From Eubacterium sp. (lineage in GTDB: Bacteria > Bacillota > Clostridia > Lachnospirales > Lachnospiraceae), in contig JAETSX010000003.1 of NCBI GenBank assembly GCA_021769425.1, forward strand, positions 69,678 through 133,677: a stretch of 64,000 nucleotides of DNA. The letters run 5' to 3'. The position numbers were made by a program, and so were the translations under genes. Numbering within the stretch: position 1 is the stretch's first letter; every line of letters begins with the position of its first letter. The notes under the pieces are model-generated. The model did not search any database. It was not told the DNA's origin and worked only from the letters and a program-made list of their open reading frames with translations. Below, one piece after another: positions 1,766 to 38,373 of this stretch.

Positions 1766-1784
1766 AGGGAAAAGGAGAAAAAAA

Positions 1785-2522: not shown

Positions 2523-2574
2523 AGCGGCATTTGCAATAGGGCGTAAATTGTGATATATTGGTAAAAATTATGAA

Positions 2575-3615: not shown

Positions 3616-3782
3616 AGAAACGGCGCCGGGACTGCCGGAAGGCTGGATGCAGATAAGAACATGGAACAAGAATGAGGAAACGGCGCCGGGACTGCCGGAA
3701 GCCGGATGCAGATAGGAACATGGAACAAGAATGAGGAAACGGCGCCGGGACTGCCCGGAAGCCAGATGCAGAGATAGACACG
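3565..3782. repeat. Tandem repeat, about 3.5 copies of a 59-60 bp unit, starting inside the last codons of the GT2 gene
   Basis: The unit gaaacggcgccgggactgccggaagccggatgcagataagaacatggaacaagaatgag recurs at about 3617, 3677 and 3736. A diverged copy at 3565-3616 encodes the protein tail and stop. Confidence 0.9.
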
Positions 3783-3819
3783 AAAAATATAAGACAGAGA
3801 CAGTCAGGAGGGCTGAAAC

Positions 3820-5595: not shown

Positions 5596-6783
5596 ATGGA
5601 TAATAAAGCAGGAAAGAATATAATTCGGGGAATGATCAAGTTTTTGGTATACAAGGTTCTTTTTCCAGGCGTGTATGCCGCCGGAGCGCTTCGGAAAGTG
5701 AGAAAAGGAAAAACGATCTTCGTAGAACTTCACGGCAGTGCCTTAAGCGACAATTTTCGGCTTTTGAAAGAAGAGGCAGAGCAAAAACCAGGGTTTCAGA
5801 TCCGGGAATACTATCTGGATTTTCAGAAAGATTCTCTGTCTTATTACCGCAGATGCCTGGGGCTTTTGTGGGAGGCGTCAAATGCCCGGTATATTTTTCT
5901 CAATGATTCCTGCAATGTGCTGGGGGCTTTCAAAATGAGAAAAGGAAGCCGGATGATCCAGACCTGGCATGCCTGCGGCGCCTTTAAGAAGTGGGGATTC
6001 AGCGCAGCCGATCAGGAATACGGCGAGAGCCGTGAGGAACTTATGAAATATCCCTACCATCGGAATTATACTTTGGTGACTGTCAGCAGCCCGGAGGTGA
6101 TTTGGGCCTATCAGGATGCTTTTCAGGCGCCGGAGGCGGCAGTTCAGGCATTGGGAGTCAGCCGGACGGATGTTTATTTCCGCGAATCTTTCCGCCGGGA
6201 CGCTGAGCGGAAATATTTCAGACAGGTTCCCCAAGGGAACGGGAAAAAATGTATCCTGTATGTGCCCACATTCCGGGGAACCGGCGGGAAGGCAGACAGT
6301 CCGGGGATTTTGGACTATGCGTTTTTGAAACAGAAATTGGGACAGGATTATATCATCATTGAGAAACGCCATCCTTTTGTGAAAGAACCACTGAAATTGG
6401 AGGAATCCCTGAAAGATTTTGCCGTTGAGGACTGCGGATTGGAAATTGCAGAATTGCTCTGCATTGCGGATATCTGCGTAACAGATTATTCTTCTGTGGC
6501 GTTTGAATATTCATTGATGGAACGGCCGATGATATTTCTGGCCTATGATCTGGAAGAATATTTTGATAATCGGGGATTTTATTACGATTATCGGGAATTT
6601 GTGCCGGGTCCTGTGGTGAAAAACAGCGAAGAGCTTGCGGCGGCAGTCAGAAGCATCGGGGAGCAGCCGGAAGAAGCCAGGGAGAGAATTGCCGGGTTCC
6701 GGCAGAAATTTATGTCTTCCTGTGACGGACATGCCACAGAAAGAATCTGGCGGGAGATTGTGAAGCAGGACAACAGGAGCTGA
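5596..6783 (+). CDS. CDP-glycerol/CDP-ribitol polyol-phosphate transferase (TagB/TagF/TarL family)
   Basis: Motifs IQTWHACGAFKKWGF, LYVPTFRG, TDYSSVAFEY and CDGHATERI. Confidence 0.8.
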   Translation: MDNKAGKNIIRGMIKFLVYKVLFPGVYAAGALRKVRKGKTIFVELHGSALSDNFRLLKEEAEQKPGFQIREYYLDFQKDSLSYYRRCLGLLWEASNARYIFLNDSCNVLGAFKMRKGSRMIQTWHACGAFKKWGFSAADQEYGESREELMKYPYHRNYTLVTVSSPEVIWAYQDAFQAPEAAVQALGVSRTDVYFRESFRRDAERKYFRQVPQGNGKKCILYVPTFRGTGGKADSPGILDYAFLKQKLGQDYIIIEKRHPFVKEPLKLEESLKDFAVEDCGLEIAELLCIADICVTDYSSVAFEYSLMERPMIFLAYDLEEYFDNRGFYYDYREFVPGPVVKNSEELAAAVRSIGEQPEEARERIAGFRQKFMSSCDGHATERIWREIVKQDNRS

Positions 6784-6938
6784 ATGGCCGGCAGAATCCA
6801 TCGAATGACTGTCAGCAGGAATTGAATGGCCGGCAGAATCCATCGAATGACTGTCAGCAGGAATTGAATGGCCGGCAGAATCCATCGAATGACTGTCAGC
6901 AGGAATCGAATAGCCGGCAAAATCCATCGAATGTAAGG
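6781..6938. repeat. 42-bp tandem repeat: three perfect copies plus one degenerate partial copy, beginning exactly at the TGA stop of the upstream gene
   Basis: tgaatggccggcagaatccatcgaatgactgtcagcaggaat at 6781, 6823 and 6865, with a diverged copy at 6907-6938. Confidence 0.95.
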
Positions 6939-6951
6939 CAGGTTAGAAAGC

Positions 6952-8082
6952 ATGGGGAATAAGCTGAAAATAAGACAGGCATTGAAGGAATGCCTGAGAA
7001 AATTCATATTGCCTGTGGTATACCATATTTACTGCGTCCGGTATCCTGGCCCGGATCAGCGGCTTATCGTATTTGCCGACGCCCATCACAAGGAGTTTCC
7101 GGAGGATATGCGTCTGCTGAAAGAAGAAATGCAGCGGCGGGGGTACAAAGTTCAGGAACTGGTCCATGATTTTGCGGAAGTCAGCTTTGGGAAAAGCATA
7201 AAGGCGATGCTTTCCTTTCTAAAATATTACGCACAGGCAGGCCTGGTAGTGCTCTGTGATTACTACCTGCCTGTGATTTCCGTAAAAAAGCGGAAAGAAA
7301 CAAAAGTAATCCAGCTTTGGCATGCCTGCGGCGCCTATAAGAAATTTGGTTATGATGCCAGAGATGATTTGCTGTCAGTCAAGGATCAGAATATGTTCCG
7401 GAACTTTGATCTGGTTTCTGTCAGTTCTGAACACTGCAGAGTCGTGTATGCAGATGCCTTTCATCTTCCGTTGGAAAAAGTGCAGGCGTTGGGAGTCAGC
7501 CGGACGGATCGGTATTTTTCAGAATCATTTATGGAAGAATGCAGAAGCCGTTTTTTCAAAGAGTATCCTGAGGCGGCCGGCAGGAAAATTATCCTGTGGG
7601 CGCCTACCTTCCGTCACAATGCAGGGGAGGGAACGCTGTTTGGCGCAGAAGCCATAGACAGCCTTTGTGAAAAGCTTTCCGGGGAATGGTTTGTTATCCG
7701 GAAAGTTCATCCCCACCTGGAGAAAAAGATGGCGGCGTCTAACTGCAGAATTCCCACGGAACAGCTCTATGCGGCGGCGGATTTGCTGATTACCGATTAT
7801 TCTTCGGTAATTTTTGACTTTGCGCTGACAGGAAAGCCGATTCTGATTTATGCGCCGGATCGGACTCAATATGAAAAAGAACGGGGGTTTTACCTGGAGC
7901 TGGAGGAGCTTCCGGCACGGGTGGTCACAGATGGGGAGGAACTGGCAGAAGTAATTTCCCGGGGGGAATATAAAACGGCATCTGAGAAGTATGAGAAGTT
8001 TATAAAAAATCAGCTGCAGATGTGTGACGGACATGCCACCAGCCGGATTGCAGATTATATCGCAGATATGCAGGGCATGTGA
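6952..8082 (+). CDS. CDP-glycerol/ribitol polyol-phosphate transferase (TagF family)
   Basis: Motifs IQLWHACGAYKKFGY, LWAPTFRH, TDYSSVIFDF and CDGHATSRI. Confidence 0.8.
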   Translation: MGNKLKIRQALKECLRKFILPVVYHIYCVRYPGPDQRLIVFADAHHKEFPEDMRLLKEEMQRRGYKVQELVHDFAEVSFGKSIKAMLSFLKYYAQAGLVVLCDYYLPVISVKKRKETKVIQLWHACGAYKKFGYDARDDLLSVKDQNMFRNFDLVSVSSEHCRVVYADAFHLPLEKVQALGVSRTDRYFSESFMEECRSRFFKEYPEAAGRKIILWAPTFRHNAGEGTLFGAEAIDSLCEKLSGEWFVIRKVHPHLEKKMAASNCRIPTEQLYAAADLLITDYSSVIFDFALTGKPILIYAPDRTQYEKERGFYLELEELPARVVTDGEELAEVISRGEYKTASEKYEKFIKNQLQMCDGHATSRIADYIADMQGM

Positions 8083-8159
8083 AAACAGGAGAAGGAAACA
8101 GCTGCACGACCGGAATCGCATTTTTTACAGAAGCGGCGGCTGAGATGCAGGAGGAGAAA

Positions 8160-11100
8160 ATGTCAAAGGATAAAAAGAAACCGGGCCGGATTCCCACTCT
8201 TTCCATGATGAAAAAAATGAGATCAGGAACTTTAGAAGCTGAGGATCTGGAGTCCTTTCCGAAAAACAACAGATGGGCTTTTAATGCAGGAAGGACATTT
8301 GCAGGAAATCCCAAATATCTGTTCATCTACATCAATAAATACCGAAAGGATATTGACGCCTATTGGCTGTGCGACAATGAGGAAACCGTGGAATATATCC
8401 GAAAGCTGGGCTATAAAGCCTACACTTTTGTAGACGGGGAAGCACATCGGCTGGAAACCCAGACCGGTGTTTATGTAGTGGAACAGGTGAAGGAAAATAT
8501 TCCGGAGCGGATGTCAGAGGTAAAATATCTGAATCTGTATCATGGAGTGGGGTGCAAGTCCATAGAGCGGAGAGTGAATACTGGTTTTTTAAACGAGAGG
8601 ATTATCGGAAAATATATAAAATATAATCAGTTTTATAGTGACAGGCAACTATTTCTTGTGACATCTCCTTTGATGGAAAAGCACTTTATCTATCAGTGTG
8701 GTCTAAAAAAGAATCAGGTAGTTAGGGGGGGATATCCTCGCTGTATGTATCAGAAATATTGTGATAAAGTGGATACTTTTGATCATGATATCCGATCTAG
8801 AAAAGGACTTGAATCAGATACGAGGATTGTTGCTTATGTGCCGACTTATAGAGATAATGCGCCTCAAGGATTTATGAGTCTCGCAATTCCGAATATGGAA
8901 CGTTTGATTCAGAAGCTTGAGGAGAAAAATATGTTAATGATTTTCAAGATGCATCCCCTAATTCTGGAAGATTATGAGTATTTAAAGCTGAAGGAAAAAT
9001 ATCAGGATCATCCAAGGCTTTTGTTTTGGAATAACCAGGAAGATTTCTACGAGATATTTGAGGATATTGAGGTGGGAATTATAGATTATTCTTCTATTTT
9101 TTATGATATGCTGGCAGGAGGAACCAAATATTTTATTCGATATTTCTTTGATTATAAAGATGGAAAATCTTTTCGGGATATGGTATATGATTTAGAGGAA
9201 ATGACCTGCGGAAAAATGTGCAGAAATTTTGATTCTCTGTTAGAAGCGCTGGATTCCTACGAAGAGGATGACAAACAGGACAGAGAGAGAATTGAAAAAT
9301 TATTTTGGGAATATGACCATAAGGGCTCGATGGATGAGATTATCAATGCCGCCCTGGAATTTGAGCCGGAGCCGGAGCCGCTGCCCACTTTGTATACCTT
9401 TGATATTTTTGATACGTTAATTTCACGGAAGGTATTGGAGCCGGAAGGGATTTTCTACCAGGTAAAAGAGAGAATGGAAGTCTCTGAATTGGAGTTTCCA
9501 TCCTTTTTCATGCAGAATTATCCCCAGAAAAGGCAGGAGGCAGAGTCAAATGTCCGGGAATGGTACCGCAAAACCCTGGAACTGCGTCCGGATGCCAGAA
9601 GGGAAATCCATTTTGAAGAGATCTTTGAGCGGATGGCAAAAGTGTATCACCTGACAGAAGAACAGACGAATGCCCTGATGGAGTGGGAACTGGAGGCAGA
9701 GTATGAGAGCAGCATCCCCATTCCAAGGGCAGTTTCCTATGTAAAAGACTTGATACAGAAGAGAGAAACAGTCTGCCTGATCAGCGACATGTACCTGAGC
9801 CGGGAGTTTATACAGAAACTTCTTGTAAAAGCAGATCCGGCTCTGGGGGAACTTCCGTTGTTTCTGTCCAGTGAATACGGCGTACAGAAAAGCACGGGGT
9901 TATTGTACCTGGAAGTATACCGGAGTTTTGAGACCTATATGTTCGGCGCATGGATTCATCACGGAGATAACCGGAAGGCCGACGGGACTTTTGCAAAGAA
10001 ATTAAATATTACCACAGTGCTGAGAGAGCGTCCGGAATTTAATGAGTATGAATGGAAGCTTGCGTCCCAGATTGGAACCGGCGATGCCTTTAAGACAGCG
10101 GCGCTTTTGGCAAGATTCCGGGAAAGTAACGGAAAACGGAAAGACTATTATGCTTACGGACATATATCTATGTACTTTGTTCCCTATATCAGCTGGGTCC
10201 TGGGGCATGCCATAGAGCATGGGACGAAATGCCTGTATTTTATTTCCCGTGACGGCTATCAGCTGAAGCGGATTGCAGACAGAATTATAGAGAAGAAGAA
10301 TCTGCCTGTCCGGACCAAATATATCTACGGTTCCAGAAGGGCCTGGAGGATTCCTTCGCTGATTACAGAACTGGATAAGGAATTCTTCTCGAAATTCGGC
10401 AACTTTGTCAATATAAAATCTTATGATAAGATGCTGAATGCCCTTAATATGGAAGAAAAAGATTTCCAGCAGATTTTCCCTGATTTAGCCTATTTGAAAG
10501 ATGCAGGCGAGATCACGAAAGAAATCCGGGAGTCTTTGATTATCACATTTTCCAATTCAGAGCCTTATCGCCGGTATATTCTGGATAAGTCAGCCAGAGA
10601 TCGGGGGATTGTGTTGGACTATCTGCGGCAGGAAATTAATTTCGAAGAGAAATTTTCATTTGTGGAATATTGGGGCAGAGGGTATACCCAGGACTGTACC
10701 GCCCGTTTGCTGGAAGCGGCATGTGGGACGAAATGCCCGGCGCCTTTTTATTATATGAGAAGCATCTACAGCAGCGAGGAGAACCGGATTCGATATAATT
10801 TTACCACGGCGTCCAATTCTCTGATTTTTGTGGAGGCAATTTTTGCCAATATTCCCTACAAAAGCGTAGAGCGGTATCAGCCTGGGGAAAATGGAAAGAT
10901 TTTGCCGGTTCTTGAGCCTGCGGACTGCGATATGGAACTGTTTCATGCCATGGAACATCGGCTTTTGCAGTTCGTGGATGACTTTTACGGCCTTGAGCTT
11001 AAGGATGCGGAGAATCTGGAGAAAATGCTTCAGAAAGTGTCCGTTGAATATTTTGAGGAGCATCAGGAGGATGAGGTGTTTACCAGATGCCTTGCTCCGC

Positions 11101-25588: not shown

Positions 25589-27886
25589 ATGGAGGAAAGT
25601 ATGAGAGATCTGGTAATTGCTGTAACAGCAGCAAGCTACAGCGGAAATAAAGGCGCGGCTGCCATGCTGCAAAGCTCCATCAGCCAGTTGCAGGAAAGAT
25701 ATGGAGAGCGGCTGAATATAAATTTGATGTCAGTGTATCCGGGGGAAGACAGAAAACAGGTTCCCTATGATTTTGTGAAAATTGTGCCTGCAAAGCCGGA
25801 GCAGCTTGTATTTTTTGCCTTTCCTATGGCAATTCTGCACCGGATGTTCCGTTGGTGCGGACCCATTCGCAAATTGCTGGAAAAAAATAAAATCATCAAA
25901 GCCTACCGGAATACGGATCTGGTCATTGACGAGGCAGGAATTTCCTTTGTGGACAGCCGGGGATTTGTGATGAACACTTATGCATTTATCTGCGCGGCGG
26001 TGCCCCTTCTGGTGGGAACTCCGGTGGTAAAGTATTCCCAGGCTATGGGAACTTTCCATAATCCCTGGAATCGGTTCCTGGCAAAATGGATTTTGCCCAA
26101 GTTAAAACTGATTTGCGCCCGGGGCCAGGGCACCTATGACAATCTGAAAGAAATTGGAATTACAGAAAATGTAAAATTATGTGCGGACGGCGCATTTACC
26201 ATGAAAGATGACCAGGCATGTCAGGAAAAAGTCAGGGAGAGATGCGGGAAAGATCCATTTTTCCAGAAAGATGTGGTGGGTCTGTCCATCAGTTCTGTTG
26301 TACTGAAAAAATGCACCAAAATGGGCATTGATTATCAGAAAATCATGGTGGATTTTATTGCGTATCTGAATCAGAAGGGATATGGGGTTCTGATGATTGC
26401 CAATGCAGCCAGAATCAACAGCGAAAAGCCCAGAAATAATGATTTGATGATTGGTGACGCTATTTTTGGAAGCCTTTCCGATCAGACAAAGGTTCGGTGG
26501 TATCATGAAGAGATGGACGCCGAGGAGATTCGGGAGTATATCAGCCATTGTAAATATCTGGTGGCTTCCCGGTTCCATGCCATGATTGGCGCTTTGGAGA
26601 AAAAAGTGCCGGTGCTTCTGATTGGCTGGAGCCATAAATATCAGGAAGTGCTGGATATGTTTGAACTGGGCCAGTATGCGGCGGATTTCTCCAATCTGAA
26701 TATGGACAGCCTGAAGGAGAGTTTTGAGAATTTTGAAAAGGATGAAGCAGTGATTCGGGAGAAGCTAGAGAAAAACCATCGGCAGGTGATGGAAAGCTCC
26801 CGCCGGAATATTCAGTATATCGGAGAAGTGATAGATGAGATATTAAAACGGCCCCGTCGGACGCCAAAGCTGTTGGACTATAATAATCCGGAGTATTATG
26901 TGGGAGAATATGTTGCTTTGCGTAAGGGATATGCCAAAGAACAGGGAATTCGTGATTATGCAGCTTCCGGCGGTATGGTGACCGCTTTATTGTGCAATAT
27001 GCTGAAGCATGGAGATATTGACGGCGCCTGGGTCACCCGGACCGATTTTGTCAATGACGAATTGACTTATAAAACTTATATTGCCACAACGGAGCAGGAA
27101 ATCCGGGAGGCGTCTTCCAGCGTATATATGTCCATTCCGCTGCTAAAGCATATCGATCTTCTGGAGCAGTTTCCAGGAAAGGCAGCAGTTGTGATGACAC
27201 CCTGCATGATGCATGGACTGGAACAGATCCTGCGGAAACGGCCGGAATTAAGAGAAAAGGTGGTTTTAAAACTGGGGCTGTACTGCAGCGGAGGACACGA
27301 TAAAAGAGCTACGACCCTTTCCATGGAAAAAGCGGGCGTCAGCCCAAAAGGCGCCAAACGATTGTATTACAGAAGGGGCCACTGGCGGGGCATGTCTTCC
27401 GTGGTATATCAAAATGGAGAAGAAAAAACATTTTCTTATGCCAAATTAGTCTGTGCCTATAAAAATGCCTATTTCTTCGAAAGAGCCAGCTGTATGCGCT
27501 GTCATGACCATTTTGCAAAGAGTGCGGACATCAGTTTTGGAGATATCTGGCTGAAAGAGATGAAAAAAGTGAGCATTAAGCATACCAGCTGTGTGATCCG
27601 CAATCAGAAGGCACTGGAATACTTTAATCAGGCTGTGGCGGACGGGGCGCTGGAGGCTTCCCATATCAGCGGAAAAGATATGGTCAGAAGCCAGAAACGT
27701 GCACTGGTCTTTAAATACCGCTGTGCCGAAACGTCAGGAAAACGGAAATGGAACCATAAGCTGGCATATTACCTTGCGGAAAAGAACCGGAAGTTCTCGA
27801 TGGAGAAGCCGGAGAAACTGGAGAAAGCGCCTTCCTGGTTTATTTATTATTATATGTGCTTTATCCGGGTTCTGCTGAGCTTTTAG
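25589..27886 (+). CDS. Fusion protein: polysaccharide pyruvyl transferase (WcaK/CsaB-like) N-terminal domain plus FrhB/FdhB-like (coenzyme F420 hydrogenase beta C-terminal family) domain
   Basis: N-terminal domain: SYSGNKGAAAML...ASRFHAMIGALEKKVPVLLIGWSHK. C-terminal domain: ASGGMVTALLCNMLKHGDIDGAWV...CMRCHDHFAKSADISFGDIW. Confidence 0.6.
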   Translation: MEESMRDLVIAVTAASYSGNKGAAAMLQSSISQLQERYGERLNINLMSVYPGEDRKQVPYDFVKIVPAKPEQLVFFAFPMAILHRMFRWCGPIRKLLEKNKIIKAYRNTDLVIDEAGISFVDSRGFVMNTYAFICAAVPLLVGTPVVKYSQAMGTFHNPWNRFLAKWILPKLKLICARGQGTYDNLKEIGITENVKLCADGAFTMKDDQACQEKVRERCGKDPFFQKDVVGLSISSVVLKKCTKMGIDYQKIMVDFIAYLNQKGYGVLMIANAARINSEKPRNNDLMIGDAIFGSLSDQTKVRWYHEEMDAEEIREYISHCKYLVASRFHAMIGALEKKVPVLLIGWSHKYQEVLDMFELGQYAADFSNLNMDSLKESFENFEKDEAVIREKLEKNHRQVMESSRRNIQYIGEVIDEILKRPRRTPKLLDYNNPEYYVGEYVALRKGYAKEQGIRDYAASGGMVTALLCNMLKHGDIDGAWVTRTDFVNDELTYKTYIATTEQEIREASSSVYMSIPLLKHIDLLEQFPGKAAVVMTPCMMHGLEQILRKRPELREKVVLKLGLYCSGGHDKRATTLSMEKAGVSPKGAKRLYYRRGHWRGMSSVVYQNGEEKTFSYAKLVCAYKNAYFFERASCMRCHDHFAKSADISFGDIWLKEMKKVSIKHTSCVIRNQKALEYFNQAVADGALEASHISGKDMVRSQKRALVFKYRCAETSGKRKWNHKLAYYLAEKNRKFSMEKPEKLEKAPSWFIYYYMCFIRVLLSF

Positions 27887-29505: not shown

Positions 29506-31359
29506 GTGAGAACAATAGTAGACAGCAATCAGATTCTGATAAAAAGGATATTTCTGATTCTTTATGATATCATAGCGGTAGTAGTCGCCAGCCTGATGGC
29601 GCTGTTCATTCGTTTTGAAGGAAACTATGCCTCAATTCCGCGGGGTTACATTACCCAGAGTTTGAAATACGTTCCGGTGGTGATTGTGGCAACTCTGATT
29701 ATATTTTACTGTTTCCGGCTCTACAGCAGCCTGTGGACTTTTGCCGGAGCGCCGGAACTAATTAATATTACCTTTGCCTGCGGATTATCCGCAGTAGTCC
29801 AGATGGCTGTAGTTGTGCTTTTTTCCATAAATATGCCCAGAAGTTTTTATTTTCTATATGGGGTTTCTCTGTGGATTCTGGTATTTTTAAGCCGGTTTTC
29901 CTATCGTGGAATCCGTACCCTGATCAAACGGCAGGCAAGCGGAGCGGCAACATCCAGAGTGATGATTGTAGGGGCAGGAGCGGCAGGTAACCTGCTGGTG
30001 AAAGAGATACGCAACAGCAACCATGTGAGCAAACGGGTGATTTGTATTGTGGATGATGATAAGTCCAAGGAGGGCAGTTACCTTCACGGTGTGAAAGTCA
30101 TGGGGAACCGGCAGAATATTCCGGAATTGGTAAAGAGGTATCGGATAGACGAGATTATTATTGCCATGCCTTCTGCCCCTGCTAAATCTATCAAGGCTGT
30201 TCTGGACGTCTGCAAAGAGACGGGATGCGATCTGAAGCGTCTGCCCGGAGTGTATCAGCTGGTAAACGGCGAGGTAGGCATCAGCAAATTAAAGGAAGTA
30301 GACGTGAACGATTTGCTGGGCCGGGAGCCTGTGAAAGTCAATCTGTCCACAATTATGGATTATGTGTCTGGCAAAGTGGTGTTGGTAACTGGCGGAGGCG
30401 GCTCCATCGGAAGCGAGATCTGCCGGCAGGTGGCGGAGCATCATCCGAAAATGCTGGTGCTGGTGGATATTTATGAGAATACCACATATGATATTCAAAA
30501 TGAGCTGAAAAATAAGTATCCGGAATTGAATCTGGTGGTATTAATTGCTTCTGTCCGTAATACCAAACGAATGGATATGATATTTGAGACCTACCGGCCG
30601 GATATTGTATATCATGCCGCTGCTCATAAACATGTGCCTCTGATGGAGGACAGCCCTAACGAGGCAGTGAAAAATAATGTCCTGGGCACCTGGAAGGTAG
30701 TGCAGGCAGCAGATGAGTGGAAGGTAAAACGGTTTGTGATGATTTCCACAGACAAAGCGGTTAATCCTACCAATATCATGGGAGCCACCAAGCGGATCTG
30801 CGAGATGATTATTCAGACTTATAATAACCGATCCCGCACAGAATTTGTGGCAGTGCGTTTTGGAAATGTGTTAGGAAGCAACGGCAGCGTGATCCCCTTA
30901 TTCAAAAAACAAATCGAGCAGGGAGGGCCTGTTACGGTGACGCATCCGGATATCATCCGATATTTTATGACTATTCCTGAGGCAGTTTCCCTGGTGCTTC
31001 AGGCAGGAGCCTATGCCAAAGGCGGAGAGATTTTCGTGCTGGATATGGGAGAGCCTGTGAAGATTGCGGATTTGGCCAGGAACTTGATTCTGTTGTCCGG
31101 CCATAAGCCGGGAGAGGATATTCAGATTGTTTATACTGGTCTGCGGCCGGGAGAGAAGCTTTATGAAGAAATGCTGATGCATGAGGAAGGGCTGCAGGAG
31201 ACGGCAAATAAGTTGATTCATATTGGAAAGCCCATCAAAATGGATGAAGATAATTTCCTGATGCAGCTGGAGAATCTGAAGGATTATGTTGTGCAGGAGC
31301 CGGACGATATCCGGAAATGGGTGCAGGAGATTGTGCCTACGTATCATCCGAAGGAATAG
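29506..31359 (+). CDS. Membrane-anchored nucleotide-sugar 4,6-dehydratase (CapD/PglF/WbpM family)
   Basis: 4 N-terminal TMs, two Rossmann motifs (VMIVGAGAAGN, VLVTGGGGSIGSE) and ISTDKAVNPTNIMGATKR. GTG start. Confidence 0.8.
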   Translation: MRTIVDSNQILIKRIFLILYDIIAVVVASLMALFIRFEGNYASIPRGYITQSLKYVPVVIVATLIIFYCFRLYSSLWTFAGAPELINITFACGLSAVVQMAVVVLFSINMPRSFYFLYGVSLWILVFLSRFSYRGIRTLIKRQASGAATSRVMIVGAGAAGNLLVKEIRNSNHVSKRVICIVDDDKSKEGSYLHGVKVMGNRQNIPELVKRYRIDEIIIAMPSAPAKSIKAVLDVCKETGCDLKRLPGVYQLVNGEVGISKLKEVDVNDLLGREPVKVNLSTIMDYVSGKVVLVTGGGGSIGSEICRQVAEHHPKMLVLVDIYENTTYDIQNELKNKYPELNLVVLIASVRNTKRMDMIFETYRPDIVYHAAAHKHVPLMEDSPNEAVKNNVLGTWKVVQAADEWKVKRFVMISTDKAVNPTNIMGATKRICEMIIQTYNNRSRTEFVAVRFGNVLGSNGSVIPLFKKQIEQGGPVTVTHPDIIRYFMTIPEAVSLVLQAGAYAKGGEIFVLDMGEPVKIADLARNLILLSGHKPGEDIQIVYTGLRPGEKLYEEMLMHEEGLQETANKLIHIGKPIKMDEDNFLMQLENLKDYVVQEPDDIRKWVQEIVPTYHPKE

Positions 31360-31380
31360 TATGAATTCTGAAATATGAAA

Positions 31381-31476
31381 GGGGCTGTCGGAAATGAGAT
31401 TTACAAACAATATATAGTCTGAATCCCAAAAATTTCAGCTATATATTGTGGAAAATTTCCATTTCCTGACAGTTCC
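31381..31476. repeat. Nested imperfect palindrome immediately after the dehydratase gene, at the left edge of the island
   Basis: Inner arms caatatatagtctgaa (31408-31423) and ttcagctatatattg (31434-31448). Outer arms ggctgtcggaaatgagattt and aaatttccatttcctgacagttcc. Confidence 0.6.
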
Positions 31477-31592
31477 TTTGTCATATAGTCAATTTATAAT
31501 TAGGAGTTTATTATACAGCATGTATTGTGTATGATGGGAGTAAAATGACATCCTGAAACGATATATTGAAAGAAACGGAGGTGGAGTGACGT

Positions 31593-33200
31593 ATGAAGCC
31601 ATTGCCAATTGGGGTAGATGATTTTGAAAAGCTTATCACAAAAAATTATTATTATGTTGATAAGACATTGTTTATAAAAGAATTGTTGGATAAACGCGGC
31701 ACGGTGAATTTGTTTACCCGTCCAAGACGTTTTGGAAAGACGTTGAATTTAAGCATGCTTCGCTATTATTTTGAAAATACAGGAGTTGAGGAAAAGAACC
31801 GGAAGAATAGGGAACTTTTCTCAGGTCTTGCTATCGAAAAAGCAGGAGAAGCATACATGAAAGAAGTGTGCTGTTATCCAGTTATTATGGTAACCCTTAC
31901 ATCTGCAAAGCAGAGAGTATATCAAGAGGCTATGGTCTGTCTGCAAGAAGCATTGGCAGAGGAATATGCCAGACATGAAAAACAGGTGGAGGGAAAACTT
32001 AAAAATCAAGGAGATTGGCAAAAGTATATGCGTATCCGAGAACAGTGCGGGGAAGATACAGATTATCTGACCAGCCTTGCGTTCCTGTCTAAATGTTTGT
32101 ATCAGGTGTATCAAAAGAAAATCATTATATTGATTGATGAGTATGACGTTCCTTTGGAAAATGCATATTTTGCGGGATTTTATGAAGAAATGGTGAGTTT
32201 CATTCGTTCCCTGTTTGAATCAGCGTTAAAAACGAATCCCTATCTTGAATTTGCAGTGGCAACCGGTTGTCTGAGAGTATCCAAAGAATATATTTTTACC
32301 GGGCTGAATAATCTGAGGGTTTATTCTGTTTTAAATGAGAATTATCAGGAATATTTTGGGTTTACAAAGGGAGAGGTTCAGGATATGCTGGAATATTATG
32401 GTCGGGTGAAAAATCTTCCAGTTATACAGGAATGGTACGACGGATATTGTTTTGGAAGTGCAGAGGTTTATAATCCATGGAGTATTTTGAATCATATGGA
32501 GGATATTCTTACAAATCAGGAGGCGTTTCCCGTACCGTATTGGGCCAATACCAGTTCCAATAGTGTAGTGCGGGATTTGGTGGAAAAATTAGGCGATGAT
32601 ACAGGAATGCTTCAGGAACAATTGGAATGTCTGATGAATGGCGGAACCATTGAAAAGGCGGTTCGTGAAGATATCACATATGACGCCGTATACGATCATG
32701 AGGATAATCTGTGGAATTTCCTGTTTTTTACCGGGTATTTGAAGAAAGTATCGGTTCGGCAGGAAGGAAATGTCCCATACGTCACTCTGGCAGTTCCCAA
32801 CCGGGAAGTCTCGTATATTTATCAGTATTCTATCCATAGCTGGTTTGATAAGAAGCAAAAGAATTTTGATATGCTGCCTTTTTATACGGCTCTGGAAGAG
32901 GGTGACACGGATAAAATGGAAGAAGAAATTTCCGGATTCCTGGAGCAGACGATCAGCTATTTTGACTATGGGGAAAGCTATTATCATGGATTTTTGGCAG
33001 GATTGCTGCAGCGGAATGGAAAATACCGTATTCTTTCTAACCGGGAGGCCGGATTGGGCCGGGCGGATCTGATCTTGAAAACGCCCAGAATCCGCAAAGG
33101 GCGGGCGGTGATACTGGAATTAAAAGCTGTAAAAAGGTTCCAGGACATGGAAAAAGGCTGCCGGGAGGCGCTTATGCAGATAGAAAAAAAAGAAATTTAA
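31593..33200 (+). CDS. P-loop ATPase (predicted AAA-ATPase, PF09820-type) fused to a PD-(D/E)XK nuclease-like domain; the C-terminus is cut short at an A8 tract
   Basis: MKPLPIGVDDFEKLITKNYYYVDKTLFIKELL...RPRRFGKT (Walker A), ILIDEYD (Walker B) and the C-terminal GRADLIL...VILELK. The -1 frame after A8 (33184-33191) continues with EELQQEGYENIMGYGLCFYRKECIV. Confidence 0.75.
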   Translation: MKPLPIGVDDFEKLITKNYYYVDKTLFIKELLDKRGTVNLFTRPRRFGKTLNLSMLRYYFENTGVEEKNRKNRELFSGLAIEKAGEAYMKEVCCYPVIMVTLTSAKQRVYQEAMVCLQEALAEEYARHEKQVEGKLKNQGDWQKYMRIREQCGEDTDYLTSLAFLSKCLYQVYQKKIIILIDEYDVPLENAYFAGFYEEMVSFIRSLFESALKTNPYLEFAVATGCLRVSKEYIFTGLNNLRVYSVLNENYQEYFGFTKGEVQDMLEYYGRVKNLPVIQEWYDGYCFGSAEVYNPWSILNHMEDILTNQEAFPVPYWANTSSNSVVRDLVEKLGDDTGMLQEQLECLMNGGTIEKAVREDITYDAVYDHEDNLWNFLFFTGYLKKVSVRQEGNVPYVTLAVPNREVSYIYQYSIHSWFDKKQKNFDMLPFYTALEEGDTDKMEEEISGFLEQTISYFDYGESYYHGFLAGLLQRNGKYRILSNREAGLGRADLILKTPRIRKGRAVILELKAVKRFQDMEKGCREALMQIEKKEI

Positions 33201-33280
33201 AGAGGAACTGCAGCAGGAAGGGTATGAGAATATTATGGGGTATGGATTGTGTTTTTACCGGAAGGAGTGTATAGTTAGAA

Positions 33281-34390
33281 ATGGGGAGACTCAATAAAAA
33301 TAATTTTCAAGAAAATTTATCGCGCTTTACAGAGTTAGGAGATTCCATACATGGCAATTCTATGGAGGAAATGGAACAAAAGCTCAATGAAATGGAAAGT
33401 GTCTTTCAGCAGTATGCTGGAGAATGGGAGATAATGGATAAATTTCCAATAGAGAAAATGGCCGATGGCATGTGCAAACTGGGGCAGAAATATTATAAAT
33501 CAGAACGGTATTGGGATGCGCTGTTTTGGTGTAGGCAGGCAGGGGTGTATTATAATATGGCATTTGGGCAGCAATCGTTTGCAGCTGCTGAATGTAACGT
33601 ATGGCTTGGAATGATATGCTATGAGTTGGGAAATTACACAGAGTCTCTAAAATGGTGTATGGATGCCCTGCTTATGAGAGAAAATCTGCAAAACAGCGGG
33701 TTTCAGGATAATTTGCAGATTTATTTTACAATAGCCAGAAATTATATCATGAAAGGATATTATATGGCAGCGGAAGAGCTGTTCATGAGAATATATGAGA
33801 ATACAGAGGATAAAGATTACCACTCAGAAATTTTCCGGAATATGGGAATTCTCTGTGATAAGCAGGGGGACAATCGGAATGCACTGACCTGGTTTATGAA
33901 GGCGGTAAAAATCAAAGAGGAATTATATGGGCAGGGAAGTTTAGAGGCTGCTGGATTGTACAACAGCTTAGGGATTATTTATTGCAATATAAAAAAGTAT
34001 GCGGAAGCAGAAGAGTATTTGATGCGTTCTTTGGAGATTAAGGAAGAACAGCTTTCGTCAAATAGCATTTCATTGTCCAACACCTATCATCAGTTGGGGA
34101 ATCTGGAAGCATCCAGAGAACAATTTGCCAAAGCATTGGAATGGCATGAAAAATCATTAAACATTCGCATATCGGCGCTGGATGCCGGGCATCCCCTGAT
34201 TGCAGATACTTTTTTGTCAATAGGCGGAATTTATATCAGAGCGGGAGATTATGTGAAAGCGCTGGATTATAATAAAAGATCCTTGGAGATCTACATACAG
34301 AGTCTTGGAAGAGATCATAAACATACAAAATCGGTGATGAATAATGTGAAAATGCTGGAAATGCAGCTGCAAATAGATAAGGGGGAATAA
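33281..34390 (+). CDS. Tetratricopeptide (TPR_12-like) repeat protein
   Basis: About 7 repeats of the type AxxYxxLGxxYxxxGxYxxAxxYxxxxLxI, for example NTYHQLGNLEASREQFAKALEWHEKSLNI. Confidence 0.75.
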   Translation: MGRLNKNNFQENLSRFTELGDSIHGNSMEEMEQKLNEMESVFQQYAGEWEIMDKFPIEKMADGMCKLGQKYYKSERYWDALFWCRQAGVYYNMAFGQQSFAAAECNVWLGMICYELGNYTESLKWCMDALLMRENLQNSGFQDNLQIYFTIARNYIMKGYYMAAEELFMRIYENTEDKDYHSEIFRNMGILCDKQGDNRNALTWFMKAVKIKEELYGQGSLEAAGLYNSLGIIYCNIKKYAEAEEYLMRSLEIKEEQLSSNSISLSNTYHQLGNLEASREQFAKALEWHEKSLNIRISALDAGHPLIADTFLSIGGIYIRAGDYVKALDYNKRSLEIYIQSLGRDHKHTKSVMNNVKMLEMQLQIDKGE

Positions 34391-34391
34391 T

Positions 34392-34727
34392 ATGAAAACA
34401 AATATGGTTTTGTCATTTTGCAATTTACAGGATGAAAGCGAATTAGAATCAGCGTTGGATGAATTGGAAGGAATCAATTACGAGAAAATCAACTCAAAGG
34501 GTTTTGACGGGGTGGAAATGATTATGTATGTTTTATCAATTGGAGGAGGCGTAGTCGTTACACAGCTTGCAAAGATTATCATTACCCTGATCAAGAAAAA
34601 TGATAATCTGCGGATAAAAATCGGAGATGTGGAAATAAGCGGCTATTCGCCTGATGTAATTCCAAAAATATTAGATTCCGCCATTGAATATCACAGGAAG
34701 AAGATGGAAATTGAAAATGACGGTTGA
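34392..34727 (+). CDS. Small (111 aa) protein with a Gly-rich hydrophobic core; resembles effector-associated constant-component (EACC1-like) proteins
   Basis: ESELESALDEL helix, GFDGVEMIMYVLSIGGGVVVTQLAKIIITLI, then LRIKIGDVEISGYSPDVIPKIL. It starts 1 nt after the TPR gene stop. The resemblance is from memory only. Confidence 0.4.
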   Translation: MKTNMVLSFCNLQDESELESALDELEGINYEKINSKGFDGVEMIMYVLSIGGGVVVTQLAKIIITLIKKNDNLRIKIGDVEISGYSPDVIPKILDSAIEYHRKKMEIENDG

Positions 34728-35826
34728 TTCTTATTTGAAAATTACAAGGGATAAGTTTACATATGCGGAAGAACAGATGAAGCCGATGTTTGAGAATTTA
34801 GCGAGACAGTTAGGGCTTAAGGTAGTCTGTGTTGCGATTAAGAGCAGTAAGGCAAGGATAGAATTTATAGAGTTGGACGGGTGCTTTTATATTATCTGGG
34901 ATTTGAATTATTGGAAGGTATTTGAACGTCATTTGCGCTACAGACGCAAATTGGATGCTAAAGATATGGATGATGAACAGGCAAAGGGAATCTTGTGGGA
35001 TATGGCGTTAAATTTATTTGATTTTTTCAGAAAATATTTTCCTACGGTTGGCAATGCAAGCTATAAGTTTTCCCGTACCTGTTGGATCAATGGTTACGTA
35101 GAGCCAGAAGAATATGATTATTCGGACACAGTGCTGAATGAAACTCTTTTTATTTGCAAGATGTATACGTTTGTACATGAGATACATCATCTGTATTTTG
35201 TTTTAAATTCAGAAGCCAGAAGAAACGTGGAAGAAAATATACGGCATGCATTGAGAAAATGTGAAGAACAGGTTTATAAGGAAGCCGTCAGCTGGAGGGA
35301 GCATTTCAGCACTTACCATACGCAGAAAGAAGTTGAGGAAGCGCTTCACCAGTTAATATGGGGAGATGCTCCAATTTATGACGAACTGTTATCAGATGCA
35401 GCTGCTTTTTATCAGACTTGTTATATTTATTTCACGGGTTCCGGGAAGGATGCGGAGAGTGATTGGGGAATGTTTGTTCCGAAAGTCAGAAATAGTATTT
35501 TTGAGATTCGATCTTATAGCCTTATGCTGAAAACATTGATTCAGGTTGTCAGTGATTTGGAGAACCGATCAGATGTATCAACTGAGACTGTCATAAAAGA
35601 GCACCATGAACATTCCAGGCGCATTCTTTTGCGGGAGTTTGCAATGAAGTTTATCGAAATTGATCAATTGCGCTTAATACTTTCAACTTTAGATTTGGAG
35701 CAGGTTTTGGCTGCTTATAATTTGGATATTGTTCCGCCTTTCAGGAAAAGTTATTATGAGTTTGTTCTGCCTTATTTTGAGAAATTTGCAAATGAGGTTA
35801 TGATTCCGATTTTGTACAGTGTATAG
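34717..35826 (+). CDS. Hypothetical protein with a single HExxH motif (putative Zn-metallopeptidase-like effector)
   Basis: FVHEIHHLYF at about residue 160. It overlaps the small ORF by 11 nt. The ORF is open from 34684. No other family recognised. Confidence 0.4.
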   Translation: MTVDSYLKITRDKFTYAEEQMKPMFENLARQLGLKVVCVAIKSSKARIEFIELDGCFYIIWDLNYWKVFERHLRYRRKLDAKDMDDEQAKGILWDMALNLFDFFRKYFPTVGNASYKFSRTCWINGYVEPEEYDYSDTVLNETLFICKMYTFVHEIHHLYFVLNSEARRNVEENIRHALRKCEEQVYKEAVSWREHFSTYHTQKEVEEALHQLIWGDAPIYDELLSDAAAFYQTCYIYFTGSGKDAESDWGMFVPKVRNSIFEIRSYSLMLKTLIQVVSDLENRSDVSTETVIKEHHEHSRRILLREFAMKFIEIDQLRLILSTLDLEQVLAAYNLDIVPPFRKSYYEFVLPYFEKFANEVMIPILYSV

Positions 35827-35844
35827 GAAATTTTTAATTAGCAT

Positions 35845-35873
35845 TTGCATTTCCTGAGAAATTGTAGTACAAT
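35845..35873 (+). promoter_or_regulatory. Sigma-A-type promoter for the downstream glycan operon
   Basis: TTGCAT (35845-35850), a 17-nt spacer, then TACAAT (35868-35873). Confidence 0.55.
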
Positions 35874-35923
35874 AGGAAACAATGTATAAGTCTATAGAGT
35901 ATCTTGCATGACAGGAGGAGAAT

Positions 35924-37114
35924 ATGAAACAGCATATTTTTCTTTCCTCGCCCCACATGAGCGAAGAAGGATATGAACAGAAATATATCAAGGAAGCATT
36001 TGACACCAACTGGATTGCGCCTCTTGGCAAGAATGTAACAGAATTTGAAAAAGAAATGACAGCGAAGCTTGGAGCAGGAAAGGCAGTAGCCCTTTCCTCG
36101 GGAACGGCCGCTATACATATGGCGTTAAAAGCAATCGGAGTAAGTCAGGGCGATATCGTATTTTGCCAGTCCCTGACTTTTTCTGCTACCGCAAATCCGA
36201 TTGTTTATGAGAAGGCAATGCCGGTGTTTATAGACAGTGACAATGAAACCTGGAATATGGATCCGAAAGCATTAGAGCTTGCGTTTGAGAAATATGAGAA
36301 GCAGGGAAAGCGTCCGAAAGCAGTTATGGTGGTGCACCTCTATGGTATTTGCGCCCATATTGATGAAATTTCAGAGATATGCCGGAACCATCAGGTACCC
36401 CTCATTGAAGATGCTGCGGAAAGCCTGGGAACTACATATCATGGAAAATATACAGGAACTTTCGGGGATTATGGAATTATCAGCTTTAATGGGAATAAAA
36501 TTATAACAAGTTCCGGCGGAGGCATGCTGCTGGTGAATACACAGGATGCGGAAGAGAAAGCAAAGAAAGTCCTTTACTGGGCTACCCAGGCGCGGGAGCC
36601 TGCCCGCTGGTATCAACATACGGAAATTGGATATAATTATCGTATGAGCAATATTGTAGCAGGTATCGGCAGAGGGCAGTTAAAAGTTTTGGATCAGCGT
36701 GTGGAGAAGAAGCGCTACATTTATGAATATTATCGGAAACATCTTGGCGATTTGCCGGGAATTCATTTTATGCCTATGATGGAAAATACCAGAAGCAACT
36801 GTTGGCTTACGTCTGTCCAGTTGGATGCGGACTGCAAGGTGAAGCCGCTTGATATCATGTTGGCTTTAGAGGAAGATGATGTGGAGAGCCGGCCGATTTG
36901 GAAGCCAATGCATTTGCAGCCTGTGTTTGCAGAGTGTGATTTTGTTACGTTGGTGGAAGAACTGCAAGTGGTAGACGAAAAAACAGGAGCAGATAACAGT
37001 GTCAGCGGGCAGATTTTTGAACATGGGGTTTGCATGCCAAGTGACAGCAAGATGAAGGATGAGGATTTAGAACGGGTATGTAGTGTGGTTAAAAAACAGT
37101 GGGAGCGGAAATGA
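35924..37114 (+). CDS. DegT/DnrJ/EryC1/StrS-family sugar aminotransferase (PglE-like)
   Basis: MKQHIFLSSPHMSEEGYEQKYIKEAFDTNWIAPLG..., and the PLP-lysine region ISFNGNKIITSSGGGML. Confidence 0.8.
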   Translation: MKQHIFLSSPHMSEEGYEQKYIKEAFDTNWIAPLGKNVTEFEKEMTAKLGAGKAVALSSGTAAIHMALKAIGVSQGDIVFCQSLTFSATANPIVYEKAMPVFIDSDNETWNMDPKALELAFEKYEKQGKRPKAVMVVHLYGICAHIDEISEICRNHQVPLIEDAAESLGTTYHGKYTGTFGDYGIISFNGNKIITSSGGGMLLVNTQDAEEKAKKVLYWATQAREPARWYQHTEIGYNYRMSNIVAGIGRGQLKVLDQRVEKKRYIYEYYRKHLGDLPGIHFMPMMENTRSNCWLTSVQLDADCKVKPLDIMLALEEDDVESRPIWKPMHLQPVFAECDFVTLVEELQVVDEKTGADNSVSGQIFEHGVCMPSDSKMKDEDLERVCSVVKKQWERK

Positions 37115-38373
37115 AGAAAATTCTAATATTTGGTGCCGGAGGAGTTGGTAGAGAAGTACAGTGGCTGATAGAACGTATTAATCAGAAAAGTCCTGTTTGG
37201 CAGATAGAAGGATATTTGGATGATGGTGCAGAGTCTGGAACAGAAGTAAATGGTTATAAAGTTCTGGGAGGGATTGATGAACTTAGAAAATATGATAATT
37301 CTATATCAGTGGTTTGTGCAGTTGGTTCTTCAAGAGTAAGAGAAAAAATAATAGCAAAGATAAAGCAGATAGGACAATATCAATTCCCAAATTTGATTGA
37401 TCCAGATGTACAGAATTCTCAGTTTTTATCTATGGGAGAAGGAAACATAGTATGTGCAGGTAATATTCTTACGGTGAATATTACAATGGAAGATTTTGTG
37501 TTTTTGAATTTGTCATGTACAGTAGGACATGATGCAGTTTTGGAGTCCTTTGTAACAGTTTATCCAGGAGTAAATATTTCAGGATGTACGTTGATAAAAA
37601 AAGGTGTAGAGCTTGGGGCAGGAAGTAAAATTATCCAAGGAAAAGTAATTGGAGAGAATGCGATTGTAGGAGCAGGGGCGGTGGTAGTGCGTGATTTGCC
37701 GCCAGATTGTACTGCTGTTGGTATGCCGGCAAAACCTGTAAAATTTTTTGGGGGATATAAAACACTCTTTATAGTGGGAGCAAGCGGACATGGAAAAGTG
37801 GTTTTAGATCTTGCTCAGAAAATTGGAATTTATAGCGATATCTGTTTTTTGGATGATAATCAAGCTTTAATTGAAAAGCACAAGTTAGTGATTGGAACGA
37901 GTGATTTTCCATTCGAATTTAATAGAAAAGCTGATGTAATTGTTGCTACTGGAGATTCAAATGTTAGAAAGAAAATTCAGGAGAAATATGAAAAAAGTAA
38001 GGTGAATCTTGTAACGTTGATTCATCCGGAAGCCGTGCTTCCAGACGAATTGCTTCAGATTGGAAAAGGTTCTGTAATTATGGCAGGAGCGGTTATTCAA
38101 ACAGGTACTGAGATCGGAAAGGGTGTAATTGTAAATACATCGGCTTCTATAGATCATGAGTGTAAAATCGGTAATTTTTCACATATTTCAGTAGGTAGCC
38201 ATCTGGCGGGCAATGTAGAAATTGGTGAAAATACCTGGATTGGAATTGGTGCGATAGTGAATAATAATGTACATATTTGTGAAAATGTGATAGTTGGGGC
38301 TGGAACAGTAGTTGTGAAAGATATAGTAGAAAGCGGTACGTATGTAGGAGTGCCAGCTAAAAGAATAAAATAA
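37111..38373 (+). CDS. Tandem fusion of two complete NeuD/PglD-type sugar N-acetyltransferase modules
   Basis: Module 1: KILIFGAGGVGREV...GYLDD...TVGHDAVL plus hexapeptide repeats. Module 2: LFIVGASGHGKVV...FLDDN...SIDHECKI plus hexapeptide repeats. ATGA overlap with the aminotransferase gene. Confidence 0.75.
   Translation: MKKILIFGAGGVGREVQWLIERINQKSPVWQIEGYLDDGAESGTEVNGYKVLGGIDELRKYDNSISVVCAVGSSRVREKIIAKIKQIGQYQFPNLIDPDVQNSQFLSMGEGNIVCAGNILTVNITMEDFVFLNLSCTVGHDAVLESFVTVYPGVNISGCTLIKKGVELGAGSKIIQGKVIGENAIVGAGAVVVRDLPPDCTAVGMPAKPVKFFGGYKTLFIVGASGHGKVVLDLAQKIGIYSDICFLDDNQALIEKHKLVIGTSDFPFEFNRKADVIVATGDSNVRKKIQEKYEKSKVNLVTLIHPEAVLPDELLQIGKGSVIMAGAVIQTGTEIGKGVIVNTSASIDHECKIGNFSHISVGSHLAGNVEIGENTWIGIGAIVNNNVHICENVIVGAGTVVVKDIVESGTYVGVPAKRIK

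Follow-up and report, generated by a model that had tools for sequence, protein, structure and literature searches.

We analyzed a 64,000-nt stretch of DNA, hereafter called the window, from a Lachnospiraceae bacterium (Eubacterium sp., GenBank assembly GCA_021769425.1, contig JAETSX010000003.1, positions 69,678 to 133,677), in which four open reading frames (ORFs) on the same strand, ORF1 to ORF4, lie between a gene for a CapD/PglF-like dehydratase and the PglE/PglD/PglC-like genes of a glycan locus. We found that ORF2 to ORF4 (33281–35826, + strand) constitute a self-contained, horizontally mobile three-gene cassette encoding a tetratricopeptide repeat (TPR) protein, a mini-protein of 111 amino acids (aa) and a protein with an HExxH motif. 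The invariant core of this cassette is the translationally coupled ORF3 and ORF4 pair, whereas ORF1 is an independent passenger. Our model predicts that the cassette is a protease-gated membrane-effector module, in which a zincin-like ORF4 protein would process the ORF3 mini-protein under the control of the TPR protein. We assign this model a probability of roughly 0.45.

An earlier note on this DNA had described the four ORFs as a single nucleoside triphosphate (NTP)-dependent conflict system. The four same-strand ORFs, the motifs that it quoted, the flanking genes, the promoter-like hexamers and a palindrome at the left edge are all present in the sequence, and a conflict or defense role is still the most plausible one. 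In contrast, the four-gene composition of the system and the logic ascribed to it proved to be wrong.

ORF2 to ORF4 form a mobile cassette

The extent of the cassette was established by comparing the window with related loci, which are referred to here by L numbers. In a blastn comparison, window positions 33302–34389 and 34379–35828 matched positions 6510–9112 of L018, a locus from a GTDB metagenome-assembled genome (MAG), at 80–83% identity with no match outside these segments, which places the boundaries of the mobile unit at 33302 and 35828 of the + strand. The gene order in L018 is ftsE-ftsX-pcsB-like-ctpB, followed by the TPR, small-protein and HExxH genes and then by uvrB-uvrA-mreB, without ORF1 and without glycan genes. 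This copy in the ctpB–uvrB site is preceded by the ctpB terminator and an AT-rich leader of ~240 bp, and has its own hairpin and T-run downstream. The earlier note had proposed checking whether ORF2 to ORF4 occur together away from glycan genes, with or without ORF1, and we found them together outside glycan loci and without ORF1 (L018/L011).

CapD is followed directly by PglE in related glycan loci, with 48 nt (L042), 18 nt (L059), 474 nt (L048) or 323 nt (L043) between the two genes. These empty junctions agree with the earlier view that non-glycan cargo had been inserted into the glycan locus. In Lachnospiraceae glycan loci, the interval between CapD and PglE is thus a variable site where unrelated cargo lands, and a hot spot of locus diversification.

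The nonsynonymous to synonymous substitution ratio (dN/dS) was 0.12–0.14 for ORF2, 0.14–0.20 for ORF3 and 0.09–0.10 for ORF4. Because these values are low, we conclude that ORF2 to ORF4 are real genes under purifying selection and more than chance ORFs. The cassette is rare. An exhaustive hidden Markov model (HMM) search of 1.84 billion representatives recovered only 27 clusters (50% identity) of the ORF4 family, close homologs of ORF4 amount to a handful, and only 2 GTDB genomes with related loci were found in a search with a narrower alignment. The contigs carrying the closest homologs (L001-L008) repeat the arrangement of the window. A tblastn search of plasmid and phage collections with ORF4 gave no match, and thus no direct sign of carriage on plasmids or phages.

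Several close relatives of the cassette are damaged. In the L017 locus (MGBC123049), a 494-aa transposase-like ORF of an insertion sequence (6118–7602, minus strand) stands where the TPR gene and ORF3 would otherwise be, and ORF4 is truncated at its 5′ end, so that L017 is a natural knockout of the cassette. In L015, which is 97% identical to the window at the nucleotide level, a 414-bp deletion in the TPR gene (at ~1566–2257, corresponding to window positions 33553–33966) leaves ORF3 and ORF4 intact; this locus is a natural variant without the proposed TPR sensor. ORF4 is split in L009. Such repeated, independent decay is typical of costly defense or toxin cargo.

We considered the possibility that these genes are not conflict genes at all, but have an accessory role in making or exporting surface glycans or in the cell envelope. 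The cassette lies inside a glycan operon with possible readthrough into pglE, the L018 copy adjoins ftsEX, a pcsB-like gene and ctpB, and a copy in L029 is near glycosyltransferase and MatE genes. However, the cassette also occupies non-glycan sites, sister loci have CapD abutting PglE without it, Pfam searches identified no sugar-metabolism domain in it, and its patchy, rare distribution and repeated decay in close relatives are further points against such a role, which we regard as highly improbable.

The ORF3 and ORF4 protein pair

The distant relatives of ORF4 showed that pairing with a small upstream gene is strict. In all 11 distinct contexts, an ORF of 99–139 aa lies immediately upstream of the HExxH gene, the two genes being separated by up to 4 nt or overlapping by up to 38 nt. 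The small protein had been proposed as the constant component of a system in which the HExxH protein was the variable effector. Only the first of these assignments held, as the HExxH protein is the constant partner of the small protein and it is the third gene that varies. The suggestion that both families are undescribed was borne out by searches of Pfam, NCBIfam and PADLOC, none of which contains a family for either; PHROGs gave TPR-type matches for ORF2 and no match for ORF3 or the ORF4 family.

ORF3 (34392–34727, + strand) is preceded by a strong Shine-Dalgarno sequence (AGGGGG). Its AlphaFold2 model, with a mean predicted local distance difference test (pLDDT) score of 83.7, is a small α+β structure in the order β1-α1-β2-β3-α2-β4-α3. 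A loop containing S35-K-G-F-D39-G40 (34494–34511, + strand), in which S35, G37 and D39 are invariant in alignment A4, precedes a hydrophobic segment at residues 41–68, VEMIMYVLSIGGGVVVTQLAKIIITLIK (34512–34595, + strand), with a central GGG patch. The loop is a candidate cleavage or hinge site. The small proteins of the distant contexts are homologous to the ORF3 clade (hhalign E = 2.5e-5, probability 75%) and share its layout, in which a β-strand and an acidic helix are followed by a conserved loop of the S-x-G-x-D type, a single hydrophobic stretch, a pair of strands with the pattern K-I/Y-x-D/G-x-E-I and a helix at the C terminus. The Kyte-Doolittle maximum over 19 residues is 1.77 for ORF3 and 1.75–2.43 across the family, as compared with 1.71 for KrEACC1, a membrane-active protein discussed below. 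Searching with the ORF3 model in Foldseek, which the earlier note had recommended for both proteins, returned only generic ferredoxin-like, ACT or PII folds with E ~ 0.01, and the ORF3 family profile found nothing meaningful among PDB sequences. A PADLOC match of ORF3 to PDC-S15 (E = 0.0035) was dismissed as a chance hit, since none of 10 relatives matched.

The start codon of ORF4 (34717–35826, + strand) is the ATG at 34717, giving a protein of 369 aa as in its homologs, rather than 34684. Across sequence identities of only ~15–25%, six residues of the family are invariant: W61, D62, W66, H154, E155 and H158. The three residues of the metal-site motif HEIHH (35176–35190, + strand) are invariant both in alignment A2 (24 sequences) and in alignment A5 (32 diverse sequences). 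S43, K148, E223, D227 and A230 are nearly invariant; E223 and D227, which form the ExxxD motif E223-L-L-S-D227 (35383–35397, + strand) 65 residues after HExxH, are near-invariant in A2 and invariant in A5. The AlphaFold2 model of ORF4 is of medium confidence (pLDDT 60, predicted template modeling score 0.70). It consists of an N-terminal helix and a three-stranded sheet whose third strand ends in the family-invariant W61-D62-x-x-Y-W66 (34897–34914, + strand), a long helix from 138 to 163 that carries HExxH, and later helices, including that from 222 to 241, which opens with ExxxD.

Gluzincins such as thermolysin and neprilysin have an HExxH helix followed downstream by a "glutamate helix" with ExxxD. 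ORF4 resembles this group (thermolysin/neprilysin-type, with M48-type spacing) in that the HExxH helix comes after a small sheet and the ExxxD motif lies on a later helix, making E223 a candidate third zinc ligand of the gluzincin type. Unlike the known gluzincins, ORF4 showed no similarity in profile or fold to any MEROPS or Pfam family or PDB entry, and two features are peculiar to its own family, namely the invariant W-D-x-x-Y-W motif and a long helical region at the C terminus. Thus, motif conservation and predicted topology suggest that ORF4 is a metallopeptidase. One family member, P0031 (611 aa), has a helical N-terminal extension of ~260 aa fused to the HExxH domain. As a possible Rosetta-stone link this extension was uninformative, because it has no similarity to ORF2 and no Pfam domain.

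HExxH motifs are also found in non-peptidase metalloenzymes. Hence ORF4 could use HExxH and ExxxD in some other metal-dependent or structural role, in which case the function of the pair would not be proteolytic. The lack of a structural or profile match to any zincin and the moderate confidence of the model would fit this alternative. However, the histidines and the glutamate of HExxH are, together with the W-D-W residues, the only positions that stay invariant at ~15% identity, and the placement of HExxH in the middle of a long helix after a small β-sheet, with a conserved ExxxD on a later helix, is the canonical gluzincin arrangement. We therefore consider a non-proteolytic function unlikely.

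ORF2 (33281–34390, + strand) encodes the 369-aa TPR protein, the first gene product of the cassette and its proposed sensor or adaptor. It matches TPR_12 in Pfam (4.1e-57) and is most similar to solenoids of the kinesin light chain (KLC) type, with matches to KLC and consensus TPR structures in the PDB down to 4e-35. The TPR repeats noticed earlier are present, ORF2 being all TPR, and Pfam delimits six TPR_12 stretches. A TPR gene lies upstream of the pair in the clade of the window (the window, L001, L018 and L009). Elsewhere, the third gene is missing (L010), encodes a conserved 272-aa protein downstream of the pair (L019 and L022), encodes a GTPase-like protein (L021), or encodes a divergently transcribed TPR protein (L029). 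In the subclade with the ~272-aa protein, its gene directly follows the HExxH gene (L019 7183–8001, L022 7170–7520). This protein contains no Pfam domain and may be an alternative third component, possibly a sensor. In L029 (1–5232, minus strand), a 457-aa TPR protein with a transmembrane (TM) anchor and a giant ORF with an annotated length of 8125 aa are both divergent from the distant copy of the pair.

ORF1 and the flanking glycan locus

ORF1 (annotated at 31593–33200, + strand) lies outside the cassette. Its product is of the DUF1703 type, with Pfam matches to AAA-ATPase_like (PF09820, 3.5e-48) and to PDDEXK_9 (PF08011, 1.3e-11, over profile positions 2–76 of 105) and with the motifs RPRRFGKT at aa 43, ILIDEYD at aa 179 and GRADLIL...ILELK at aa 489/507. 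The rest of PDDEXK_9 lies in the +1 frame, where KEELQQEGYENIMGYGLCFYRKECIVRNGETQ followed by a stop codon extends the gene to 33297 and creates a 17-nt overlap with the ATG of ORF2. The frameshift cuts ORF1 31 codons before its end at a run of eight A residues (33184–33191, + strand). This run contains seven A residues in L015, whose reading frame is intact, and is either of that length or interrupted in the other relatives that we aligned (L001 and L017). A full-length homolog of 566 aa is present in L017, which derives from a GTDB Lachnospiraceae MAG. The 81-nt spacing between ORF1 and ORF2 given in the earlier note is therefore a product of the frameshift, as an intact ORF1 would overlap the start of ORF2. 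The A8 run could reflect a sequencing error, a real mutation that recently inactivated the gene, or slippage-prone phase variation.

The history of ORF1 appears to differ from that of its neighbors. Its dN/dS of 0.065 indicates purifying selection, and its synonymous divergence (dS) from L017 is 1.41, as compared with 0.73 for CapD, 0.61 for ORF4 and 0.56 for PglE. This value, about twice that of the neighboring genes, points to a different history. None of the 10 other distinct contexts in which the ORF3 and ORF4 pair occurs, L018 included, contains ORF1. Genes with the DUF1703 architecture are widespread, stand-alone, multi-copy and horizontally moving, and their role is unknown (PMC6387759). 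Like the proteins that they encode, ORF1 has both domains arranged in the canonical order and carries Walker A, Walker B and D/ExK motifs, but unlike theirs, its reading frame is broken in the window. In L059, where the CapD–PglE junction is empty, PglE and PglD are separated by a degraded DUF1703 gene that has suffered an internal deletion (7682–8533). Since this position differs from that in the window, DUF1703 genes appear to insert repeatedly at differing points in glycan loci. ORF1 is thus a separate passenger unrelated to the cassette, from a group of genes that also lodge in such loci.

These properties bear on the proposal that the four genes are one NTP-dependent conflict system, in which ORF1 would be an ATPase-nuclease, ORF2 the TPR sensor, ORF3 the constant component and ORF4 the variable effector. 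Features consistent with the proposal are the common strand and tight packing of the genes, including the 17-nt overlap of an intact ORF1 with ORF2, the preservation of the ORF1-ORF2-ORF3-ORF4 order in the closest relatives (L001-L008 and L015), and the finding that no terminator-like site was detected between the four genes. However, the frameshift, the elevated dS and the absence of ORF1 from the other contexts argue against its membership, and the ORF1–ORF2 junction is variable, with a spacer of ~440 bp containing a 55-aa ORF in L001. That DUF1703 genes are known to be stand-alone and mobile, as the degraded copy in L059 also illustrates, is a further point against membership. Once ORF1 is excluded, no evidence remains for the NTPase-dependent architecture or the nuclease output that had been proposed. 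No core NTPase is locked to the pair, as ORF1 is absent from 10 of the 11 contexts and L021 is the sole context with a GTPase-like neighbor. Moreover, the effector-associated domains (EADs), vWA, VMAP and other domains of the NTP-dependent ternary conflict systems (Kaur et al. 2020) were not matched by any of the four proteins in Pfam. A four-gene system is thus very unlikely.

The genes that flank the four ORFs encode a CapD/Polysacc_synt_2 protein (2e-123) upstream and, downstream, a DegT/PglE-like aminotransferase (1.8e-91), a doubled PglD_N plus hexapeptide protein and a Bac_transf/PglC-like sugar transferase. The left edge of the non-glycan insert, outside the cassette and between the capD stop codon and ORF1, is marked by a near-perfect 102-nt hairpin (31378–31479, + strand) with a folding energy of -47.1 kcal/mol (z = -10 against 200 shuffles). 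This hairpin occurs once in the window and is without a clear T-run, and the region from 31374 to 31591 is not common to L017. Instead of being a simple terminator, it may be an insertion scar, a miniature inverted-repeat transposable element (MITE)-like element or an attenuator. An Rfam search of 31200–36100 gave no match.

The hexamers TTGCAT and TACAAT with a 17-nt spacing (35845–35873, + strand) are located ahead of the PglE-like gene and had been taken as a promoter specific to the downstream glycan genes. Our scan of this region returned the overlapping arrangement TTTGCA-18-TACAAT with 9/12 matches. While the hexamers are present, the density of promoter-like sites in this AT-rich stretch is barely above background (26 observed versus 16.9 ± 4 expected), and support for this promoter is weak because such sites are frequent there. 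Base composition cannot delimit the insert, as the GC content of the island (0.37–0.42) is below that of the upstream region (0.44–0.47) but not below that of the downstream glycan genes, which is lower still (0.29–0.37).

Other features of these glycan loci were also observed. The PglD-like acetyltransferase (37099–38373) is a 424-aa protein composed of a tandem pair of PglD_N and left-handed β-helix units, and relatives retain this duplicated form, with a counterpart of 422 aa in L001. A 765-aa fusion protein encoded at 25589–27886 joins a polysaccharide pyruvyl transferase to the N- and C-terminal domains of an FrhB/FdhB-like protein (F420 hydrogenase β-subunit). In L041, a different, glycan-related cargo at the CapD–PglE junction (1491–3901) encodes a DltA-like adenylating enzyme or ligase and a formyltransferase-like protein.

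Proposed mode of action of the cassette

The organization of the pair resembles that of EACC1 and its caspase partner. EACC1 is the ~114-aa product of a 5′ gene and contains a hydrophobic TM helix with a central patch of small residues (Gly) and α+β extensions; it is followed by a 3′ caspase-fused gene with variable domains (Kaur et al. 2020, PMC7159879). The caspase-like domain of KrAvs12 cleaves the 114-aa KrEACC1 at a site modeled at Asp49, this yields a toxic C-terminal fragment of 7.1 kDa, and the cleaved protein permeabilizes liposomes (Evans et al. 2025 preprint, 10.1101/2025.11.14.688446). ORF3 is likewise the small product of a 5′ gene, within the same size range of ~100–120 aa, with a single hydrophobic segment, a central GGG patch and α+β elements on both sides. 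The pair is constant in both cases while the sensor parts vary, and the 3′ gene encodes the proposed peptidase. In contrast to EACC1 systems, the partner of ORF3 is an HExxH protein, and neither a caspase nor a cyclic nucleoside monophosphate (cNMP) cyclase domain was found in ORF4 and 23 relatives. The sensor is a separate TPR gene, or is absent, instead of being fused to the protease, there is no NTPase, and the pair comes from gut MAGs of the Firmicutes type, whereas the hosts of EACC1 are actinobacteria or multicellular taxa. When alignment A8 was compared by hhalign with three genuine EACC1 proteins (KrEACC1 from the supplement of Evans et al. and two from Streptomyces and Ralstonia replicons, which are plasmids, each followed by a caspase gene), D39 of ORF3 was placed opposite D49 of EACC1, in the Q48-D49-W-G region of KrEACC1. 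This placement, if correct, would fit the S35-G37-D39 loop as a candidate cleavage site. On paper, ORF3 is EACC1-like in its organization and is not assignable as a member of EACC1, as sequence homology is not demonstrable.

Bacterial gasdermin–protease modules are protease-gated death effectors. The proposed logic of a latent membrane-active protein encoded beside its activating protease would be shared with these modules and with Pepco (Trypco)–trypsin/Avs. However, gasdermin and Pepco modules use serine or cysteine proteases and have no sequence or fold relation to ORF3 or ORF4; gasdermin is much larger than ORF3, and the ORF3 model, unlike Pepco, is no β-barrel former. In modules of this kind, the protease is often linked to a sensor made of repeat domains, for example TPR (10.1101/2025.11.14.688446).

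In the model that we favor, the TPR protein would bind a protein or peptide derived from an invader or from stress, and this binding would release or activate ORF4. ORF4 would then cut ORF3 near the S35-G37-D39 loop, and the freed C-terminal fragment, containing the hydrophobic segment and β-strands, would oligomerize in the membrane. The cell would be arrested or killed, resulting in abortive infection. By analogy with the systems described above, the small protein is a likelier effector than the HExxH protein, and ORF3 would be a latent membrane-active protein. A more specific version holds that the ORF3 and ORF4 pair is an unrecognized abortive-infection module, in which the zincin-like family would replace the caspase of EACC1 systems and license an EACC1-like pore former, either a very remote homolog or a product of convergence, with exchangeable stand-alone sensors as the trigger. 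We consider this version possible but doubtful.

A number of findings weigh against the protease-gated model. The AlphaFold2 model of ORF3 is a soluble ferredoxin-like fold in which the hydrophobic stretch is divided into β3, a GGG turn and α2, and its membrane activity is therefore conjectural. The Pfam family for EACC1 (PF19953) was not matched by ORF3 or 10 relatives even at E ≤ 10, while the control KrEACC1 scored 2e-6, and the hhalign comparison with the genuine EACC1 proteins, despite covering 80 collinear columns, was not significant (P = 0.0067, with a probability of only 5.7%). With respect to ORF4, a Foldseek search of the PDB and BFVD found nothing below E = 0.1 and no zincin, the pLDDT of 60 being a limiting factor; its family profile had no match among PDB sequences. 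Curated peptidase profiles gave only sub-threshold matches, with Peptidase_M78 in 2 of 24 members (E = 0.036) and M50B in 1 of 24. Most distant members lack the TPR gene, so that a sensor role for it would be clade-specific at best. The PADLOC check proposed in the earlier note was also negative, as no system model in PADLOC-DB v2.0 matched; ORF2 gave only a generic TPR match and the ORF4 family none.

The gene neighborhoods of the pair are suggestive but thin evidence of a conflict role. In L025, the pair directly follows a Type I restriction-modification hsdMSR operon and precedes VbhA/Fic, in L010 it lies between HD/HD_assoc genes, and in L022 it adjoins parAB. The distant copy in L021 (1–9577) is surrounded by genes for a fusion of SIR2_2 with a protein kinase, a 1396-aa HD-CE protein, a DUF4062 plus ClpX-zinc-finger protein, a 395-aa TM plus GTPase-like protein and several ORFans; these surroundings are a putative defense island. 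However, defense or toxin-antitoxin neighborhoods were found in only ~3 of the 11 contexts (L025, L021 and L010), and the contexts other than these and L022 are housekeeping or uninformative.

HExxH peptidases that act as regulators, such as ImmA/IrrE, are paired with a small partner in mobile elements. By this precedent, ORF3 and ORF4 could instead be a regulatory or toxin-antitoxin-like pair, in which ORF4 is a toxic protease and ORF3 its inhibitor or tether, or in which cleavage of ORF3 by ORF4 passes on a signal, as happens in ImmA/ImmR, CapP/CapH or anti-sigma systems. In CapP-CapH, an HExxH peptidase and a small partner serve as a regulator in defense operons (PMC13228613). The pair shares with ImmA/IrrE-ImmR and CapP-CapH the combination of an HExxH protein and a small partner in mobile or defense contexts. 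In addition, tight gene overlap is typical of toxin-antitoxin pairs as well, two family members have the weak Peptidase_M78 matches described above, and a gene for an extracytoplasmic function (ECF) sigma factor lies ~1.2 kb downstream of the pair in L019/L020. However, the partner in the known systems is a helix-turn-helix (HTH) repressor, whereas Pfam searches identified no HTH or other DNA-binding signature in the ORF3 family, and the ORF3 model is ferredoxin-like with a hydrophobic core segment. The M78 matches are sub-threshold and the sigma-factor association was seen in one context only. A regulatory pair is thus rather unlikely.

A recent proposal holds that protease-gated death effectors, including gasdermin, Pepco, EACC1 and MBL, are a dominant logic in the immunity of bacteria. 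The cases characterized in the literature cited here use serine or cysteine proteases, and metalloproteases are not mentioned in the preprint on KrEACC1 (10.1101/2025.11.14.688446). If our model is correct, ORF4 would represent a third protease class, and if the more specific version described above also holds, the pair would provide prokaryotic immunity with its first membrane effector gated by a metalloprotease. If the prediction fails, what remains is a rare, conserved gene pair of unknown function. The cassette is compact, with 2.5 kb in total and a core of 1.4 kb, and its assignment to immunity would add two unannotated protein families to the defense catalogs.

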